The translations under genes were made by a program, and so were the position numbers. Source: a phage. Taken from it: 6,085 bases of DNA. Under the pieces are notes generated by a model. It worked only from the letters and a program-made list of their open reading frames with translations. It was not told where the DNA came from and did no database searches. Positions 1 through 6,085 of this stretch are shown piece after piece. How positions within the stretch are numbered: position 1 is the stretch's first letter; each line of letters begins with the position of its first letter. Where the stretch lies: the sequence record PX907427.1, one strand, 5' to 3'.

Positions 1-26
1 TTGTTGACATTCCCCAAACCCTTATG

Positions 27-65
27 AGACTCTTGCTTCAACGAAACGAAGTTGGAGTCTTTTTT
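27..65 (+). terminator. Candidate intrinsic terminator downstream of gene H in the circular genome (TH-like): bipartite hairpin plus T-tract
   Basis: Seen in sequence: agactc (27-32) pairs with gagtct (55-60); inner stem caac (39-42) pairs with gttg (51-54); followed by ttttt (61-65). Stem is short and only moderately GC-rich, so strength is uncertain. Confidence 0.3.
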
Positions 66-434
66 ATGAAACCTGCTCACCGCCTTTTTCACCCTGTTCT
101 TGGCTCATGGTTGTTTAAGTGCCCCGTTTATGTTCGTTATGAGTCCCTTCATCACGGTCGCCTCATTAAGGTTCGTGCTGTTCGTGATCTTTCCCCTCGT
201 CAGCAGTTGATTGCCAATCCTAAAAATTGCTTTGATGTTGTCATCGCTGAGATTGACGTTACTCGTCTTTCTGTTACTTGGTATGATTTTGAAGCCGAAG
301 AGTATGCTGAGTGTGATTCCGGCACTATGGAGCTTCTTCTTTCTCAGGTAAATTCTGGCGAGGTTATTCGCTCATCTGAAGATCTGTTTGTTGATGTTGA
401 TGATATGGAATGGCTTTATGAAATTGCGGAGTAA
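66..434 (+). CDS. Hypothetical protein (ORF1) in the H-A intergenic region, 122 aa from ATG 66 (136 aa if ATG 24 is used); basic N-terminal half, acidic C-terminal half
   Basis: Open frame 24-434 in the ORF track. GGAG at 54-57 lies 8 nt upstream of ATG 66; ATG 24 has no SD. Codon third positions are strongly T-biased (cgt, gtt, gct, gat, ctt), matching the confirmed phage genes. No homolog recognised by eye. Confidence 0.5.
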   Translation: MKPAHRLFHPVLGSWLFKCPVYVRYESLHHGRLIKVRAVRDLSPRQQLIANPKNCFDVVIAEIDVTRLSVTWYDFEAEEYAECDSGTMELLLSQVNSGEVIRSSEDLFVDVDDMEWLYEIAE

Positions 435-437
435 GTC

Positions 438-527
438 GTGGAAACTGTTATCGGAAAATTTATTGCTCTGGCTGTTGTTGCTCTTATGCTGTATGGAATT
501 TCCCGTTTGATTCGGAGGTTCCCGTGA
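438..527 (+). CDS. Hypothetical small hydrophobic peptide (ORF2), 29 aa, GTG start: METVIGKFIALAVVALMLYGISRLIRRFP
   Basis: GTG 438 preceded by cGGAG (427-431) with a 6-nt spacer; one predicted transmembrane-like segment followed by a basic tail RLIRR; same frame as ORF1, separated from it only by TAA (432-434) plus one codon; its stop TGA (525-527) overlaps the ORF3 start. Short ORF, so chance occurrence is not excluded. Confidence 0.3.
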   Translation: METVIGKFIALAVVALMLYGISRLIRRFP

Positions 528-700
528 AATATTTTAGTTTGGTAGATGAACATTATGCTTACTGCCCTGATACAAGGATTTTGCACATTACTCGTAGTCG
601 TGTTTCTGACCCTCGGTATGAGCGTCGTTTTCTTACTGATGAGGAACATTTTGCACTTTTGGATTGGTTGAAAAATCGTCCAACTTACATTAATTCTTGA
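524..700 (+). CDS. Hypothetical protein (ORF3), 58 aa, GTG start: MKYFSLVDEHYAYCPDTRILHITRSRVSDPRYERRFLTDEEHFALLDWLKNRPTYINS
   Basis: GTG 524 preceded by GGAGG (514-518) with a 5-nt spacer; GTGA start/stop overlap with ORF2; T-biased third codon positions; absent from the supplied ORF track (below its length cutoff or because of the GTG start). Confidence 0.4.
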   Translation: MKYFSLVDEHYAYCPDTRILHITRSRVSDPRYERRFLTDEEHFALLDWLKNRPTYINS

Positions 701-726
701 CAGACCTTTAAAATACCCTCTATATT
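697..726 (+). promoter_or_regulatory. Candidate sigma70 promoter for gene A (pA-like): -35 TTGACA (697-702), 18-nt spacer, -10 TATATT (721-726)
   Basis: Perfect -35 hexamer and 5/6 match to the -10 consensus with 18-bp spacing, about 33 nt upstream of the A start codon; phiX174 has its pA promoter in the equivalent position (established knowledge). Confidence 0.4.
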
Positions 727-755
727 GCCCTCATAGTTTCACTACGAGGGCTTTT
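727..755 (+). promoter_or_regulatory. Hairpin plus T-run immediately upstream of the gene A ATG; terminator-like and/or SD-sequestering 5'-UTR structure
   Basis: gccctc (727-732) pairs with gagggc (746-751), inner tagt/acta pairs (734-737 with 741-744), then tttt (752-755). The only SD-like motif for gene A (GAGGG, 746-750) is in the 3' arm of the stem. Confidence 0.3.
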
Positions 756-758
756 CGC

Positions 759-2243
759 ATGGCTACTGAAATCTTCTCTGATGTTGTTAAGTCTGTTTGG
801 TCGCACGCTACGGCTAAGCATGCTCATCTTCGCATGGCTGTTCAGGTTGATAATCGTAGCCGCCTCCTTTCTGACCTCGTTTATCAGTTGGAAAAACGCC
901 TTTCTGAAGAGACTCATTTGGATGATGAGACTCTTTCCGTCTATGAATCTCAGACTGCCCTTCTGGAAGACCATATGGCACTGGTTCGGAAGTGTGCTGC
1001 CCAACTTGATAATAGTAACACTATAGACCACCGTACCCCTTTGGATGCCGAATGTGTTTTTCTGTTTGAGATGATTTGCCCTGGTGTTCGCTACGGTAAA
1101 ACATTGAATTCTCTTTGGACTAAGTATGTCGCCCAGTGGCCTGAGAAGTTGATTCGTCAGGAGTTAGACATGGTTAAGCCTTTATCCTTTAAGGATGAGG
1201 TTGCTAAGTACATGGAGAAGATGCAGGAAAAAACACGCAAGAATCGCATGACTCAGAAAGTGATTAATGAGATGCGTATTGCTCACCAAAAAGGCTGGTT
1301 CTTCGTATTTGATACGTTGACACTTGCCGATGACCGTTTGCAGGCTTTTAATGAAAACCCCAATGCTCTCCGTGATTATTTTAGGACTGTTGGTCGAGCT
1401 GTTCTGCGCGCTGAAGGTCGTTCGGTTAAGGATTCCTACAATGACTGCTATCGCTATCTTTGTGTGCCGGAGTTTGGAGGTCAGCACGGCCGTCTTCATT
1501 GGCACGTTGTGCATATGGTGCGGACTCTTCCTTTGGGAAGTCATGACCCTAATTTCGGTCGCAAGGTACGTAATTATCGCCAGATTAACTCGTTCCGTGG
1601 CATGTGGCCTTATGGCTTCACGCAACCGATAGCTGTTCGCTATCAACATGACGCTTATTCTCGTAAAGGTTGGTTATGGCCTGTTGACAAAACAGGAAAA
1701 GCAATGCAGAGTAAGCCGTATCAGGCGGTCGCATGGTATGTGACCAAGTATGTAGCTAAGCAATCTGACCAGCGTCAGAAAGCTATTACCGAGAGACAAA
1801 AGAAATGCAAGAATCCATTAATGGCAATCTGTCTGAAGAAAGAGTTTCGGGTACGCAGCAGTCGGAAGCTCGGAATGGAGCTCCCGTCAATGGCTCACCT
1901 GAGCAACAAGGTACTTCTGGAACTGAGCCGAATCAGCTTCGATTCCAGTCCTCTGTATCAGATAGTGAAAGAGAACGCCAAAAAGCAATTGACCTTGAAC
2001 ATCGGCGCGCTGCCTTTGCACGTCATTTTGGATGTGCGCCCGGAAGTGAGAAGCATGTTGAAAACTATTCGTCGTTTGATGAAAAAGACACCCGAGTTCA
2101 ATTGGCAGAGTTCTATCGCTTCAATGACGGTCACTTTAAAAAATGGGGATATTTCTGATGAAGCACGTCAATACATTATTGATGCAGGAATTACGCCTAC
2201 TGATTTGCGAGCTAAAGCGACTCAGACTTTCGGCGGTAAGTGA
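759..2243 (+). CDS. A: Replication initiation protein A (HUH rolling-circle endonuclease), 494 aa
   Basis: Long blocks match my recollection of phiX174 protein A (WFFVFDTLTLADDRLQAFNENPNALRDYFR, PVDKTGKA, C-terminal GITPTDLRAKATQTFGGK). HUH motif H-W-H at 1497-1505; paired catalytic tyrosines in YVTKYV at 1737-1739 and 1749-1751. The gene contains the viral-strand origin. Confidence 0.95.
   Translation: MATEIFSDVVKSVWSHATAKHAHLRMAVQVDNRSRLLSDLVYQLEKRLSEETHLDDETLSVYESQTALLEDHMALVRKCAAQLDNSNTIDHRTPLDAECVFLFEMICPGVRYGKTLNSLWTKYVAQWPEKLIRQELDMVKPLSFKDEVAKYMEKMQEKTRKNRMTQKVINEMRIAHQKGWFFVFDTLTLADDRLQAFNENPNALRDYFRTVGRAVLRAEGRSVKDSYNDCYRYLCVPEFGGQHGRLHWHVVHMVRTLPLGSHDPNFGRKVRNYRQINSFRGMWPYGFTQPIAVRYQHDAYSRKGWLWPVDKTGKAMQSKPYQAVAWYVTKYVAKQSDQRQKAITERQKKCKNPLMAICLKKEFRVRSSRKLGMELPSMAHLSNKVLLELSRISFDSSPLYQIVKENAKKQLTLNIGALPLHVILDVRPEVRSMLKTIRRLMKKTPEFNWQSSIASMTVTLKNGDISDEARQYIIDAGITPTDLRAKATQTFGGK
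1002..1031 (+). other. Viral (+) strand origin of rolling-circle replication, 30-nt A-protein recognition/nick sequence CAACTTGATAATAGTAACACTATAGACCAC
   Basis: 28/30 identical to the phiX174 origin 30-mer CAACTTGATATTAATAACACTATAGACCAC as I recall it; expected nick between G1008 and A1009; located inside gene A as in phiX174. Confidence 0.9.
1221..2243 (+). CDS. A*: Protein A* (internal in-frame restart within gene A), 340 aa if ATG 1221 is used; ATG 1212 is an alternative
   Basis: In-frame ATGs at 1212 and 1221 sit where phiX174 A* starts (MKSRRG... in phiX, MQEKTRKNRM... here). GGAG at 1214-1217 is too close to ATG 1221 and GAGG 1197-1200 is 11 nt from ATG 1212, so the start is uncertain. 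Confidence 0.45.
   Translation: MQEKTRKNRMTQKVINEMRIAHQKGWFFVFDTLTLADDRLQAFNENPNALRDYFRTVGRAVLRAEGRSVKDSYNDCYRYLCVPEFGGQHGRLHWHVVHMVRTLPLGSHDPNFGRKVRNYRQINSFRGMWPYGFTQPIAVRYQHDAYSRKGWLWPVDKTGKAMQSKPYQAVAWYVTKYVAKQSDQRQKAITERQKKCKNPLMAICLKKEFRVRSSRKLGMELPSMAHLSNKVLLELSRISFDSSPLYQIVKENAKKQLTLNIGALPLHVILDVRPEVRSMLKTIRRLMKKTPEFNWQSSIASMTVTLKNGDISDEARQYIIDAGITPTDLRAKATQTFGGK
1805..2158 (+). CDS. B: Internal scaffolding protein B, 117 aa, encoded in an alternate frame inside gene A
   Basis: C-terminal region matches phiX174 B from memory (ERERQKAIDLE, AEFYRF, terminal GYF); position inside A as in phiX174. Confidence 0.9.
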   Translation: MQESINGNLSEERVSGTQQSEARNGAPVNGSPEQQGTSGTEPNQLRFQSSVSDSERERQKAIDLEHRRAAFARHFGCAPGSEKHVENYSSFDEKDTRVQLAEFYRFNDGHFKKWGYF

Positions 2244-2319
2244 CCCGGATTTTTCTCAGGAGAAAATTCATGCTGAGCTCGACTCGCTACTATGCAAGTT
2301 ATCGCGCCACTTTGACTAA
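2158..2319 (+). CDS. K: Protein K, 53 aa: MKHVNTLLMQELRLLICELKRLRLSAVSDPDFSQEKIHAELDSLLCKLSRHFD
   Basis: Not in the ORF track (too short). ATG 2158 shares its A with the B stop TGA (2156-2158); GGGGA 2145-2149 lies upstream; the ORF spans the A stop and the C start in the third frame; QELRLLICEL resembles QELLLLVYEL of phiX174 K (recollection). Confidence 0.75.
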   Translation: MKHVNTLLMQELRLLICELKRLRLSAVSDPDFSQEKIHAELDSLLCKLSRHFD

Positions 2320-2476
2320 GCAGTTGATGTTTCTTACGAAAGCTGACTTTACCAATGATGACGAGAAATGGCTTAATGCCTTTGGTAACCTTCTCCGTCA
2401 GTGGTTTCAGATTGAAGACTGGAAAGGCAATCACAAAAAATTGCTTGACGACCTGAAAAAACGTGATTATCTTTGA
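2270..2476 (+). CDS. C: Protein C (DNA maturation / stage III replication switch), 68 aa from ATG 2270
   Basis: Matches phiX174 C from memory (YFATFRHQLT...DEEKWLN in phiX versus YYASYRATLT...DDEKWLN here). The track's start at 2240 is a GTG overlapping the A stop; ATG 2270 has AGGAG (2258-2262) 7 nt upstream and is the more likely start. Confidence 0.85.
   Translation: MLSSTRYYASYRATLTKQLMFLTKADFTNDDEKWLNAFGNLLRQWFQIEDWKGNHKKLLDDLKKRDYL
2445..2473 (+). promoter_or_regulatory. Candidate sigma70 promoter for the late genes (pD-like): -35 TTGACG (2445-2450), 17-nt spacer, -10 TATCTT (2468-2473)
   Basis: Motif positions read from the sequence; lies inside the 3' end of gene C about 30 nt upstream of the D start, the position of pD in phiX174 (established knowledge). 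Confidence 0.35.
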
Positions 2477-2502
2477 CCCGAATCTTACAAAAGGAGTTAC
2501 CT

Positions 2503-2955
2503 ATGAATATTGTTTCTGATGTTAATTACGCTACTTCTGTTGCTGCTCTTCGTATGTTGCAGGCTAGTGCTGTTCTGGATATTACTGAGGAAGATTTTGA
2601 CTTCCTGACTGGTGATAAGATTTGGATTGCTACCGACCGTAACCGTGCGCGTCGTTGTGTTGAGGCTTGTGTTTATGGAACGCTGGACTTTGTTGGATAT
2701 CCTCGCTTTCCTGCTCCTGTTGAGTTTATTGCTGCCGTCATTGCTTATTATGTTCATCCCGTCAATGTACAGACAGCATGCCTCGTTATGGAAGGCGCGG
2801 AGTTTAGCGAAAACATTATCAATGGCGTCGAGCGTCCGGTTAATGCCGCTGAGCTCTTCGCCTACACCCTGCGTATTAAGGCAGGATTCAAAGAAACTGT
2901 AATGGATGCCGAGGAAAATGCTCGTCAGAAATTACGTGCTAATGGACTGAAGTGA
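2503..2955 (+). CDS. D: External scaffolding protein D, 150 aa
   Basis: Very high identity to phiX174 D from memory (ARRCVEACVYGTLDFVGYPRFPAPVEFIAAVIAYYVHPVN is identical). AAGGAG (2491-2496) lies 6 nt upstream of ATG 2503. The track's start at 2473 is a TTG upstream extension. Confidence 0.95.
   Translation: MNIVSDVNYATSVAALRMLQASAVLDITEEDFDFLTGDKIWIATDRNRARRCVEACVYGTLDFVGYPRFPAPVEFIAAVIAYYVHPVNVQTACLVMEGAEFSENIINGVERPVNAAELFAYTLRIKAGFKETVMDAEENARQKLRANGLK
2675..2902 (+). CDS. E: Lysis protein E (MraY inhibitor), 75 aa, encoded in the +1 frame inside gene D
   Basis: N-terminal transmembrane domain MERWTLLDILAFLLLLSLLLPSLLIMFIPS is nearly identical to phiX174 E (MVRWTLWDTLAFLLLLSLLLPSLLIMFIPS, recollection), including the conserved Pro in LLLPSLL. 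GAGG (2662-2665) lies 9 nt upstream of ATG 2675. Confidence 0.8.
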   Translation: MERWTLLDILAFLLLLSLLLPSLLIMFIPSMYRQHASLWKARSLAKTLSMASSVRLMPLSSSPTPCVLRQDSKKL

Positions 2956-2956
2956 T

Positions 2957-3031
2957 ATGAAAAAATCTCGTCGTTCTCCATCTCGTCGCAAAGGTGCCCG
3001 CCTTTGGTATGTAGGCGGTTCTCAGTTTTAA
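2957..3031 (+). CDS. J: DNA-binding protein J, 24 aa: MKKSRRSPSRRKGARLWYVGGSQF
   Basis: Not in the ORF track. ATG 2957 follows the D stop (TGATATG); highly basic; C-terminus ARLWYVGG.QF matches phiX174 J (GARLWYVGGQQF, recollection). The 24-aa length fits alpha3-like rather than phiX174 (38 aa). Confidence 0.9.
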   Translation: MKKSRRSPSRRKGARLWYVGGSQF

Positions 3032-3033
3032 TC

Positions 3034-3057
3034 ATGGGCCTTCGGGCCCTTTAAGGA
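3034..3057 (+). terminator. J-F intergenic hairpin module (GGGCC-TTCG-GGCCC) followed by TTT and the F SD; candidate weak terminator or mRNA-stabilising stem-loop
   Basis: Perfect 5-bp GC stem (3036-3040 with 3045-3049) around a TTCG loop; the 24-nt module atgggccttcgggccctttaagga is repeated exactly at 4364-4387. Confidence 0.5.
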
Positions 3058-3064
3058 AAATTAA

Positions 3065-4360
3065 ATGTCTAATGTGCAAACCTCCGCAGAACGTGAAATT
3101 GTCGATCTCTCCCATCTTGCTTTTGACTGTGGCATGATTGGTCGTTTGAAAACCGTTTCTTGGACCCCTGTTATTGCTGGTGACTCTTTTGAGATGGATG
3201 CCGTTGGTGTACTTCGTCTTTCTCCGCTTCGTCGCGGTCTGGCGATTGACTCTAAGGTTGATTTCTTCACCTTCTATATTCCGCATCGTCACGTTTATGG
3301 TGACCAGTGGATTCAGTTTATGCGTGATGGTATTGATGCAAGTCCTCTGCCTTCTGTTACTTGTAGCCGTTACCCTGACCATGCTGGTTATGTAGGTACT
3401 ATTGTTCCTACGAATAGCCGTATTCCGAAGTTCTTACATCAGAGCTATCTGAATATTTACAATAACTATTTCCGTGCTCCGTGGATGCCTGAGCGCACTG
3501 AGCAGAACCCTTCCAATCTTAATGAGGATGATGCTCGTTATGGCTTCCGTTGCTGCCATCTTAAAAACATTTGGTCTGCCCCTCTGCCTCCAGAGACTAA
3601 ACTGGTTGAGCAAATGGGTATTAAAAGCAATTCCATTGATATTATGGGCCTACAAGCCGCTTATGCGCAGCTTCACACTGAGCAAGAGCGTACTTACTTT
3701 ATGCAGCGTTACCGTGATGTTATCTCCAGCTTTGGCGGTTCAACCTCTTATGATGCCGATAACCGACCGTTGCTTGTTATGCACACCGACTTCTGGGCTT
3801 CCGGTTACGACGTTGATGGTACTGACCAATCTTCCCTTGGACAGTTCTCTGGTCGAGTCCAGCAGACGTTTAAACACTCAGTGCCGCGATTCTTCGTGCC
3901 TGAGCATGGTGTCATGATGACTTTGGCTCTGATTCGCTTCCCGCCTATCAGTCCGTTGGAGCACCATTATCTTGTTGGTAAGTCTCAGTTAACCTATACC
4001 GACCTTGCTGGCGACCCGGCCCTGATTGGTAACTTGCCTCCTCGCGAGATTAGTTATCATGACCTGTTCCGTGATGGTCGTTCTGGCATTAAGATTAAAG
4101 TTGCTGAGTCTATTTGGTATCGTACTCATCCTGACTACGTTAACTTTAAGTATTATGATTTGCAGGGATTCCCATTCCTTGATGATGCGCCTGGTACGTC
4201 TACTGGTGATAATCTTCAGGAGGCTATTCTTGTTCGTCATCAGGACTATGATGCTTGTTTCCAGTCTCAGCAGTTGTCACAGTGGAATAAACAGGCTCGC
4301 TATAACGTTAGTGTTTATCGCCATATGCCTACTGTTCGCGATTCCATTATGACCTCTTAA
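3065..4360 (+). CDS. F: Major capsid protein F, 431 aa
   Basis: Strong match to phiX174 F from memory ([28 protein letters not shown]...FTFY.PHRHVYG). AAGGA (3053-3057) lies 7 nt upstream of ATG 3065. Confidence 0.97.
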
Positions 4361-4363
4361 TTT

Positions 4364-4387
4364 ATGGGCCTTCGGGCCCTTTAAGGA
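4364..4387 (+). terminator. F-G intergenic hairpin module, second exact copy of the 24-nt GGGCC-TTCG-GGCCC element
   Basis: Stem 4366-4370 pairs with 4375-4379, loop TTCG; identical to 3034-3057; followed by the G SD AAGGA (4383-4387) and ATG 4395. Confidence 0.5.
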
Positions 4388-4394
4388 TTTATCT

Positions 4395-4958
4395 ATGTAT
4401 CAGAATTTTGTTACTAAGCACGATACCGCTATTCAGACCTCTCGCTTCTCTGTTACTGGCAATATCACTCCTGTTGCCCCTACTGGTAATATTCCTATTA
4501 TCAATGGTGGTAGCATTACCGCTGAGCATGCTGTTGTTAGTCTTTACGCTAATATGAATGTTGGTACCTCTTCTGATGGTTCTTTCATTGTTGCTATGAA
4601 GGTTGATACCTCTCCGGCTGACCCTAACTGCGTTATCTCTGCTGGTGTTAACCTTAGTTTTGCTGGCACTTCGTACCCGATTGTTGGTATTGTTCGTTTT
4701 GAGTCTGCTTCTGAGCAGCCCACATCTATTGCTGGTAGTCAGATTGAACATTACCCGATTGAAATGTCTGTTGGTTCCGGTGGTGTTTGTTCTGCTCGTG
4801 ATTGTGCTACTGTTGATATTCATCCTCGCACTTTCGGCAATAATGTTTTTGTTGGTGTGATTTGTTCTAGTGCTAAATGGACCTCCGGTCGTGTGCTTGG
4901 TACTATCGCGACTACTCAGGTTATTCATGAATACCAAGTTCTTCAGCCGCTTAAATAA
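4395..4958 (+). CDS. G: Major spike protein G, 187 aa
   Basis: Position after F and conserved blocks versus phiX174 G from memory (VRFES, PRT.GNNV.VG, C-terminal LQPLK). Confidence 0.95.
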
Positions 4959-5041
4959 AAGGCCGCCGCACTCCCGGTTATATGCCTGCCCAGTGTAGGG
5001 CGGACCGAGCCGTACGGAGATACCCGATAAACTAGGAACGT

Positions 5042-5068
5042 GGAAGGCGTTAGCCGCCTTCCCTCCTG
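5042..5068 (+). other. Candidate complementary (-) strand origin element: perfect 8-bp hairpin followed by CTG, of the primase-dependent G4 type
   Basis: ggaaggcg (5042-5049) pairs with cgccttcc (5055-5062), loop ttagc; CTG at 5066-5068 lies 3 nt 3' of the stem. Sits in the only sizeable non-coding spacer apart from H-A (G-H, 4959-5092). Confidence 0.35.
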
Positions 5069-5092
5069 CTAAGCCCAAAAGGAGTTACAGCG

Positions 5093-6085
5093 ATGTTAGG
5101 TGCTGTTGTTGGTGGTATTGCCTCAGCCTTAGCTGGTGGTGCCGCTTCAAAATTATTCGGAGGCTCTCAGCGTGGAGTTTCTGTTATGCAGCAAGGTGCC
5201 GAGTCTGCCGGATTGACTAACGGTGGCGGTGCCATTTCTATGGATAATGACCAAGGTATTCAGTCTGCTATTCAAGGCTCGAATGTTCCTCCTGCTGGTC
5301 AGCTTCCTGAGTCTCAGAATTCTGGTGTTATGGCTGATGCTGGTAATATGCTTCGCAATGCTGGAAAGTCCTTGCTTGACGGAACTATTCAGGCTGGCTC
5401 TGATAAAGTTAAACAAGCCCTTATTGATAAGTTGATTGGAGGTAATGATGCCAAAGATCGAGGAAAAGCCACCCGTGATTACTTGGCTGCGGCCTTCCCT
5501 GAGCTCAACCCATGGGAACGTGCTGGAGCTGGTGCTTCCACTGCCGGGTTAGAGTCCTCTGCTCAGAATCAGCAGAAAGAGATGTTGAAGATGCAATTGG
5601 ATAATCAGAAAGATATTGCAAAAATGCAGATGGATAATAATTTGCAGATTGCTGGTATTCAGTCTGCCACCTCTCGTCAAAATACAAAGGATTCTGTTTA
5701 TGCCCAGAATGAGATGCTTCAGTATAATCAACGTGAGTCGCAGGCACGCGTTGCGTCTATCCTCGCCAACACTGACCTTACGACTAAACAAGCCACCCAT
5801 GAAATTATGAGGATGGCCCTTACCCGCGCTCAGGAGACTGGTCAGCATTTGACTAACTCTCAGATTATGGCTTTGGAGAAAAAGGTTTATGCAGAAATTG
5901 GCAAAATTCATCAAGATACTCAAAATTCTCGCTATGGTAGCTCTCAAGTTACTGCCGCAGCGAAAGACGTTACGAATATGATTACTGATGCCTCTTCAGG
6001 CCTTGCTGATTGGGCTTCTCAGCAGTGGAATTCGTTCTTTAAGGATGGCAAGTCCAACGGTATTTCTTTTAATACTAGAAAATAA
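5093..6085 (+). CDS. H: Minor spike / DNA pilot protein H, 330 aa
   Basis: N-terminal glycine-rich hydrophobic segment GGIASALAGGA.SKLFGG and central block KDTRDYLAAAFPELN.WERAGA...IAGIQSATSRQNTKD.VYAQNEML match phiX174 H from memory. AAGGAG (5079-5084) lies 8 nt upstream of ATG 5093. Stop TAA is the last 3 nt of the window. Confidence 0.95.
   Translation: MLGAVVGGIASALAGGAASKLFGGSQRGVSVMQQGAESAGLTNGGGAISMDNDQGIQSAIQGSNVPPAGQLPESQNSGVMADAGNMLRNAGKSLLDGTIQAGSDKVKQALIDKLIGGNDAKDRGKATRDYLAAAFPELNPWERAGAGASTAGLESSAQNQQKEMLKMQLDNQKDIAKMQMDNNLQIAGIQSATSRQNTKDSVYAQNEMLQYNQRESQARVASILANTDLTTKQATHEIMRMALTRAQETGQHLTNSQIMALEKKVYAEIGKIHQDTQNSRYGSSQVTAAAKDVTNMITDASSGLADWASQQWNSFFKDGKSNGISFNTRK

Follow-up and report, generated by a model that had tools for sequence, protein, structure and literature searches.

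The 30-nucleotide element CAACTTGATAATAGTAACACTATAGACCAC, found at positions 1002-1031 on the + strand of the phage DNA analysed here (a stretch of 6,085 nt, hereafter the window), is almost certainly ori+, the viral-strand origin from which an alpha3-type Bullavirinae phage starts rolling-circle replication. Its two differences from the phiX174 origin, both in the spacer, are an ancestral spelling fixed in the alpha3 clade rather than new mutations. An earlier note on this DNA had read the element as a viral-strand origin bearing two substitutions relative to phiX174; comparison with reference genomes, conservation at the level of the DNA and the presence of a cognate HUH initiator all bear that reading out. 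What the earlier note missed is that the two "substitutions" constitute the canonical allele of a clade, and are no peculiarity of the window genome.

Sequence and organization of the origin

Searching the window with the phiX174 30-mer at a tolerance of up to three mismatches returned a single match, at 1002-1031, while none of 200 dinucleotide-preserving shuffles (0/200) yielded one. The reference 30-mer, CAACTTGATATTAATAACACTATAGACCAC, occurs exactly in both phiX174 (NC_001422, 4299-4328) and G4 (NC_001420, 500-529), and the version of it used in the earlier note was thus correct; the job file that a 2026 preprint on phiX174 mutagenesis (bioRxiv 10.64898/2026.07.25.740675) used for AlphaFold 3 has the identical sequence as its "ori+" DNA chain. 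Exact comparison with these reference genomes places the window element at 28 of 30 identities, differing only at position 11 (T to A, nt 1012) and position 14 (A to G, nt 1015), the same two positions, and the same AT-rich spacer, to which the substitutions had originally been assigned.

Based on its alignment to phiX174 and G4, the element comprises three parts, all on the + strand. The cleavage decamer, CAACTTG^ATA (CAACTTGATA; 1002-1011), is identical to phiX174 4299-4308 and G4 500-509, and the 13-nt "key" (A-protein binding) sequence, CACTATAGACCAC (1019-1031), is likewise identical in both phages, such that the nick-site and binding halves are each intact, as had been proposed. Between them lies a 7-nt spacer, ATAGTAA (1012-1018; TTAATAA in phiX174), which contains both clade-specific differences (A at 1012, G at 1015) and of which 6/7 bases are A/T, with one G where phiX174 has A/T throughout. 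The three-part split at these coordinates, together with the roles of the decamer in recognition and of the key sequence in binding of A protein, follows the classical literature. Decamer and key sequence each occur only once in the window, ruling out a second copy of the origin or a pseudo-origin there.

The element is also read in frame as part of protein A, again in agreement with the earlier note. It begins 81 codons into gene A ((1002-759)/3 = 81) and hence forms codons 82-91, encoding QLDNSNTIDH, which align with residues Q107-H116 of phiX174 A. Each difference from the reference 30-mer is a non-synonymous change in the second base of a codon; phiX174 and G4 encode QLDINNTIDH, and the changes in protein from phiX174 to the window are I>N and N>S, which in phiX174 numbering correspond to I110N (4309 T>A) and N111S (4312 A>G).

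Genomic context and the cognate initiator

The window represents the complete 6,085-nt genome of an alpha3-like microvirus (Microviridae, Bullavirinae, Alphatrevirus). Aligned end to end, it is 95.1% identical to coliphage alpha3 over 100% of its length and 84-92% identical to St-1, Lilleven, phiK and the WA/NC/ID isolates, and ORFs A, B, K, C, D, E, J, F, G and H all have the coordinates that they have in alpha3. No record was an exact match to window positions 1-6085; the best, alpha3, differs at about 306-310 positions, an identity close to the usual species boundary. Divergence from alpha3 was also found to be uneven, with identities of 84-89% at 2947-3544 (gene J, the J-F spacer and the start of F), about 91% over 4442-4741 (gene G), and 97-99% across A, B, K and C.

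Gene A (759-2243, + strand), which contains the origin, is an ORF of 494 aa matching the Pfam family Phage_GPA (PF05840, E = 5e-59) and encodes a HUH rolling-circle initiator. The protein is 99.4% identical to alpha3 A but only 44.5% identical to phiX174 A, and lacks part of the N-terminal region present in phiX174 and G4. Its HUH metal-binding motif, HWHVVH (aa 247-252; 1497-1514, + strand), aligns with HFHAVH of phiX174 (His263/His265), and its catalytic two-tyrosine motif, YVTKYVAK (aa 327-334; 1737-1760, + strand), aligns with YVAKYVNK (Tyr343/Tyr347). A cognate initiator is therefore present, combining the Phage_GPA domain, the HUH motif and two tyrosines spaced YxxKY, and the occurrence of ori+ at 1002-1031 confirms that the replication module of this alpha3-like genome is intact.

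Several additional features were identified around and within gene A. A strong match to a sigma-70-like promoter (11/12; TTGACA, 18 nt, TATATT) lies at 697-726, ~30 nt upstream of the A start at 759 and in the same place as the phiX174 pA promoter. The long H-A intergenic region (1-758) contains + strand ORFs at 24-434 (136 aa) and 524-700 (58 aa), neither of which is annotated in the records of alpha3, St-1 or phiK; in Lilleven, the equivalent region has ORFs annotated as hypothetical proteins. Within gene A, an in-frame ATG at 1272-1274 (A codon 172) represents a putative A* start, matching the one that the St-1 record places at 1271, and an A* protein without the origin-encoded N-terminal part is probably made in the window phage too.

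Two spacer alleles across the Bullavirinae

The 30-mer of the window was found to be identical in both alpha3 records, St-1, phiK, Lilleven, NC3, NC35, WA13 and NC29. Used as a BLAST query against a collection of 50,697 phage records, the 30-mer matched 570 Bullavirinae records, among which the 26 exact matches were precisely the alpha3-like ones (alpha3, St-1, phiK, Lilleven, WA13, and the NC and ID isolates); the other 544, phiX174- or G4-like, matched at 28/30 and carried the phiX174 spelling in 10/10 of those inspected. Alignment to reference microvirus origins, the check put forward in the earlier note, thus gives 28/30 to phiX174/G4 and 30/30 to alpha3-like phages, and since all 26 alpha3-like records are identical, the variant 30-mer does not represent a mutation specific to the window genome. 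Partial matches of 18 nt to the 30-mer in structural genes of Lactococcus 936-group phages were dismissed as chance (E = 0.6).

We also scanned IMG/VR allowing any base at the seven spacer positions, which returned 20 contigs. These contigs, the window and the reference loci carry just two spacer alleles between them, split strictly by clade. The A11/G14 allele is carried by 23 sequences (from the scan, the window and the reference loci), every one a genome of 6.0-6.26 kb, and the phiX174 allele by 10 sequences (from the scan and the reference loci), every one a genome of 5.2-5.9 kb. With A11 and G14 in a genome of ~6.0-6.3 kb showing the alpha3 gene order, the window corresponds to the Alphatrevirus (alpha3/St-1/phiK) allele.

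Constraint on the origin and alternative interpretations

Given that the element is translated in frame, and that QLD..NTIDH is common to the A proteins of alpha3-type phages, phiX174 and G4, its sequence might be conserved for the protein A peptide alone, with the DNA serving as no origin in the window phage. However, comparison of 16 distinct alpha3-like A genes, with pairwise identities down to 90.6%, revealed variation in 20% of columns and 43% of third codon positions gene-wide, but in none of the 10 third codon positions (0/10) of the 30-mer; furthermore, the longest invariant run in the gene (1002-1033) has the same first base as the 30-mer. The second-longest invariant run among these 16 genomes, 30 nt at 1959-1988, lies in the A/B overlap and is probably explained by double coding constraint. 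The same pattern was apparent across clades: nucleotide identity over gene A as a whole is 56.5% with phiX174 and 55.3% with G4 (45% and 42.5% at third positions), against 28/30 for codons 82-91, where third positions are identical at 10/10 and which form the gene's best 10-codon block, an island in the N-terminal region of the protein, its least conserved part. In addition, saturation mutagenesis of phiX174 found synonymous mutations in the homologous Q107-D115 codons to be detrimental, an effect that its authors credit to ori+, and at the I110 and N111 codons even synonymous changes were detrimental (bioRxiv 10.64898/2026.07.25.740675). With synonymous positions frozen in this manner, the constraint on 1002-1031, as judged from sequence comparison, falls on the DNA and not on the protein, and conservation for the peptide alone is very improbable. 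Even less credible, to the point of being negligible, is an origin presented on a hairpin in the manner of the nonanucleotide stem-loops of other HUH Rep replicons, the match to the 30-mer then being incidental. The loop of a stem-loop is indeed the place of cleavage for many HUH initiators, but the 90 nt at 972-1061 fold as single-stranded DNA no better than shuffled sequences (-6.7 kcal/mol, z = +0.16; 107/200 shuffles as good), and a local inverted repeat was looked for around the site and none was found, leading us to reject a nonanucleotide-type stem-loop origin. A known structured RNA was likewise rejected, as an Rfam search of the whole window gave no match.

With 1002-1031 read as ori+, its spacer changes might still alter specificity, such that origin and A protein have become co-adapted in the alpha3 clade and the origin functions poorly with the A protein of phiX174 or G4. 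Consistent with this, the two alleles segregate perfectly by clade with no intermediates among the 570 records, both changes also alter protein A, and the spacer codons of phiX174 are sensitive to synonymous change; given the effects at I110 and N111, changes in the spacer are not automatically neutral. Conversely, a single ancient neutral fixation would produce perfect segregation as well, the decamer and key sequence to which recognition and binding are assigned are identical across clades, and the exact spacer of the window is carried by 26 independently isolated viable phages. Moreover, Heidekamp, Baas and Jansz reportedly observed in the early 1980s that phiX174 A protein cleaves St-1 and alpha3 RF DNA in vitro. 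On balance, co-adaptation of this kind appears unlikely.

Proposed mechanism and comparison with known systems

The A protein of phiX174 binds replicative-form DNA and cuts its + strand inside the 30-nt origin, between G4305 and A4306; cleavage is Mg2+-dependent, Tyr343 and Tyr347 are used alternately, and religation follows each round (bioRxiv 10.64898/2026.07.25.740675); the annotation of NC_001422 places rep_origin at 4306. From the register of the alignment with this site, the nick in the window is predicted to lie between G1008 and A1009, matching the position given in the earlier note. By homology with phiX174, we also infer the roles of the sub-domains and the reaction cycle at 1002-1031, including strand-specific cleavage at the G/A step of the decamer with covalent 5' attachment.

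According to this model, protein A, the product of the gene that contains the origin, would bind supercoiled replicative-form DNA through its key sequence CACTATAGACCAC, and the AT-rich spacer would melt. One tyrosine of the YVTKYVAK motif, together with HUH-bound Mg2+, would cut the + strand between G1008 and A1009 and would then be covalently joined to the 5' phosphate of A1009, leaving the 3'-OH of G1008 as the primer from which the host's Rep helicase and Pol III would carry out rolling-circle synthesis. Upon its return, the regenerated origin would be cut by the second tyrosine, and the first strand would be religated to a circle.

The closest known counterpart is the alpha3 origin (X60322, 1002-1031), which matches the window element at all 30 bases, at the same coordinate and in the same frame of gene A; there is no difference at the origin itself, and the flank shows a few synonymous differences. 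The ori+ of phiX174 and G4, CAACTTG^ATATTAATAACACTATAGACCAC, shares with the window its three-part layout, spacer length, decamer and key sequence, as well as its in-frame position within the N-terminal portion of gene A and its HUH/two-tyrosine initiator, and is distinguished by spacer positions 11 (T>A) and 14 (A>G) and the resulting peptide (QLDINNTIDH vs QLDNSNTIDH). More distantly, separate nick and bind sites are also a property of HUH rolling-circle replicons such as the pT181/pC194 plasmids and CRESS-DNA viruses, and the tyrosine/HUH initiator of rolling-circle replicons has been reviewed as remaining covalently attached at the 5' end. Unlike the origins of these plasmids and viruses, that of the window has a nick site without a stem-loop and is embedded in the coding sequence of its initiator, and a two-tyrosine flip-flop of the phiX174 type would make continuous re-initiation possible.

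Other elements of the genome

Two further sets of noncoding elements were identified outside gene A. The GC-rich G-H intergenic region (4960-5092) aligns closely with the complementary-strand origin of G4, for which a primer RNA and a rep_origin are annotated (G4 3970-3998), and aligns with its counterparts in alpha3 and St-1 as well, at a mean column identity of 87%. Folding of its DNA as a whole is not significantly more stable than that of shuffled sequences (z = -0.96). We regard this region as a probable minus-strand origin of the primase-dependent (G4) type. The second set is a 31-nt repeat, present in two copies that are 90% identical, at 3027-3057 (just after gene J) and 4357-4387 (just after gene F), and consisting of a perfect hairpin, GGGCCTTCGGGCCC, followed by TTTAAGGA. 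These repeats are likely intergenic terminators or mRNA-stabilising hairpins that overlap the ribosome-binding site of the next gene; a simple terminator scan did not call their hairpins, owing to the short T tail.

Biological implications

The origin at 1002-1031 is a standard alpha3-type origin and already known: the in-frame origin element of phiX174-family phages has been recognized since the early 1980s, and the alpha3-type version was sequenced along with alpha3, St-1 and phiK decades ago. The main use of the present findings is accordingly one of annotation (ori+ at 1002-1031, with a predicted nick at 1008|1009), and they carry little significance beyond this. Nevertheless, the clade-wide comparison illustrates how a cis-acting DNA element can be frozen within a coding sequence, in this case as two natural alleles in about 570 Bullavirinae records. 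A11 and G14 affect the region that melts as well as two residues of protein A, and there is a slim chance that they are non-neutral, and could tune origin opening, initiator-origin compatibility or compatibility between the A and C proteins in a manner specific to the alpha3 clade. If true, the origin would constitute a partial barrier to the exchange of replication modules between microvirus genera.
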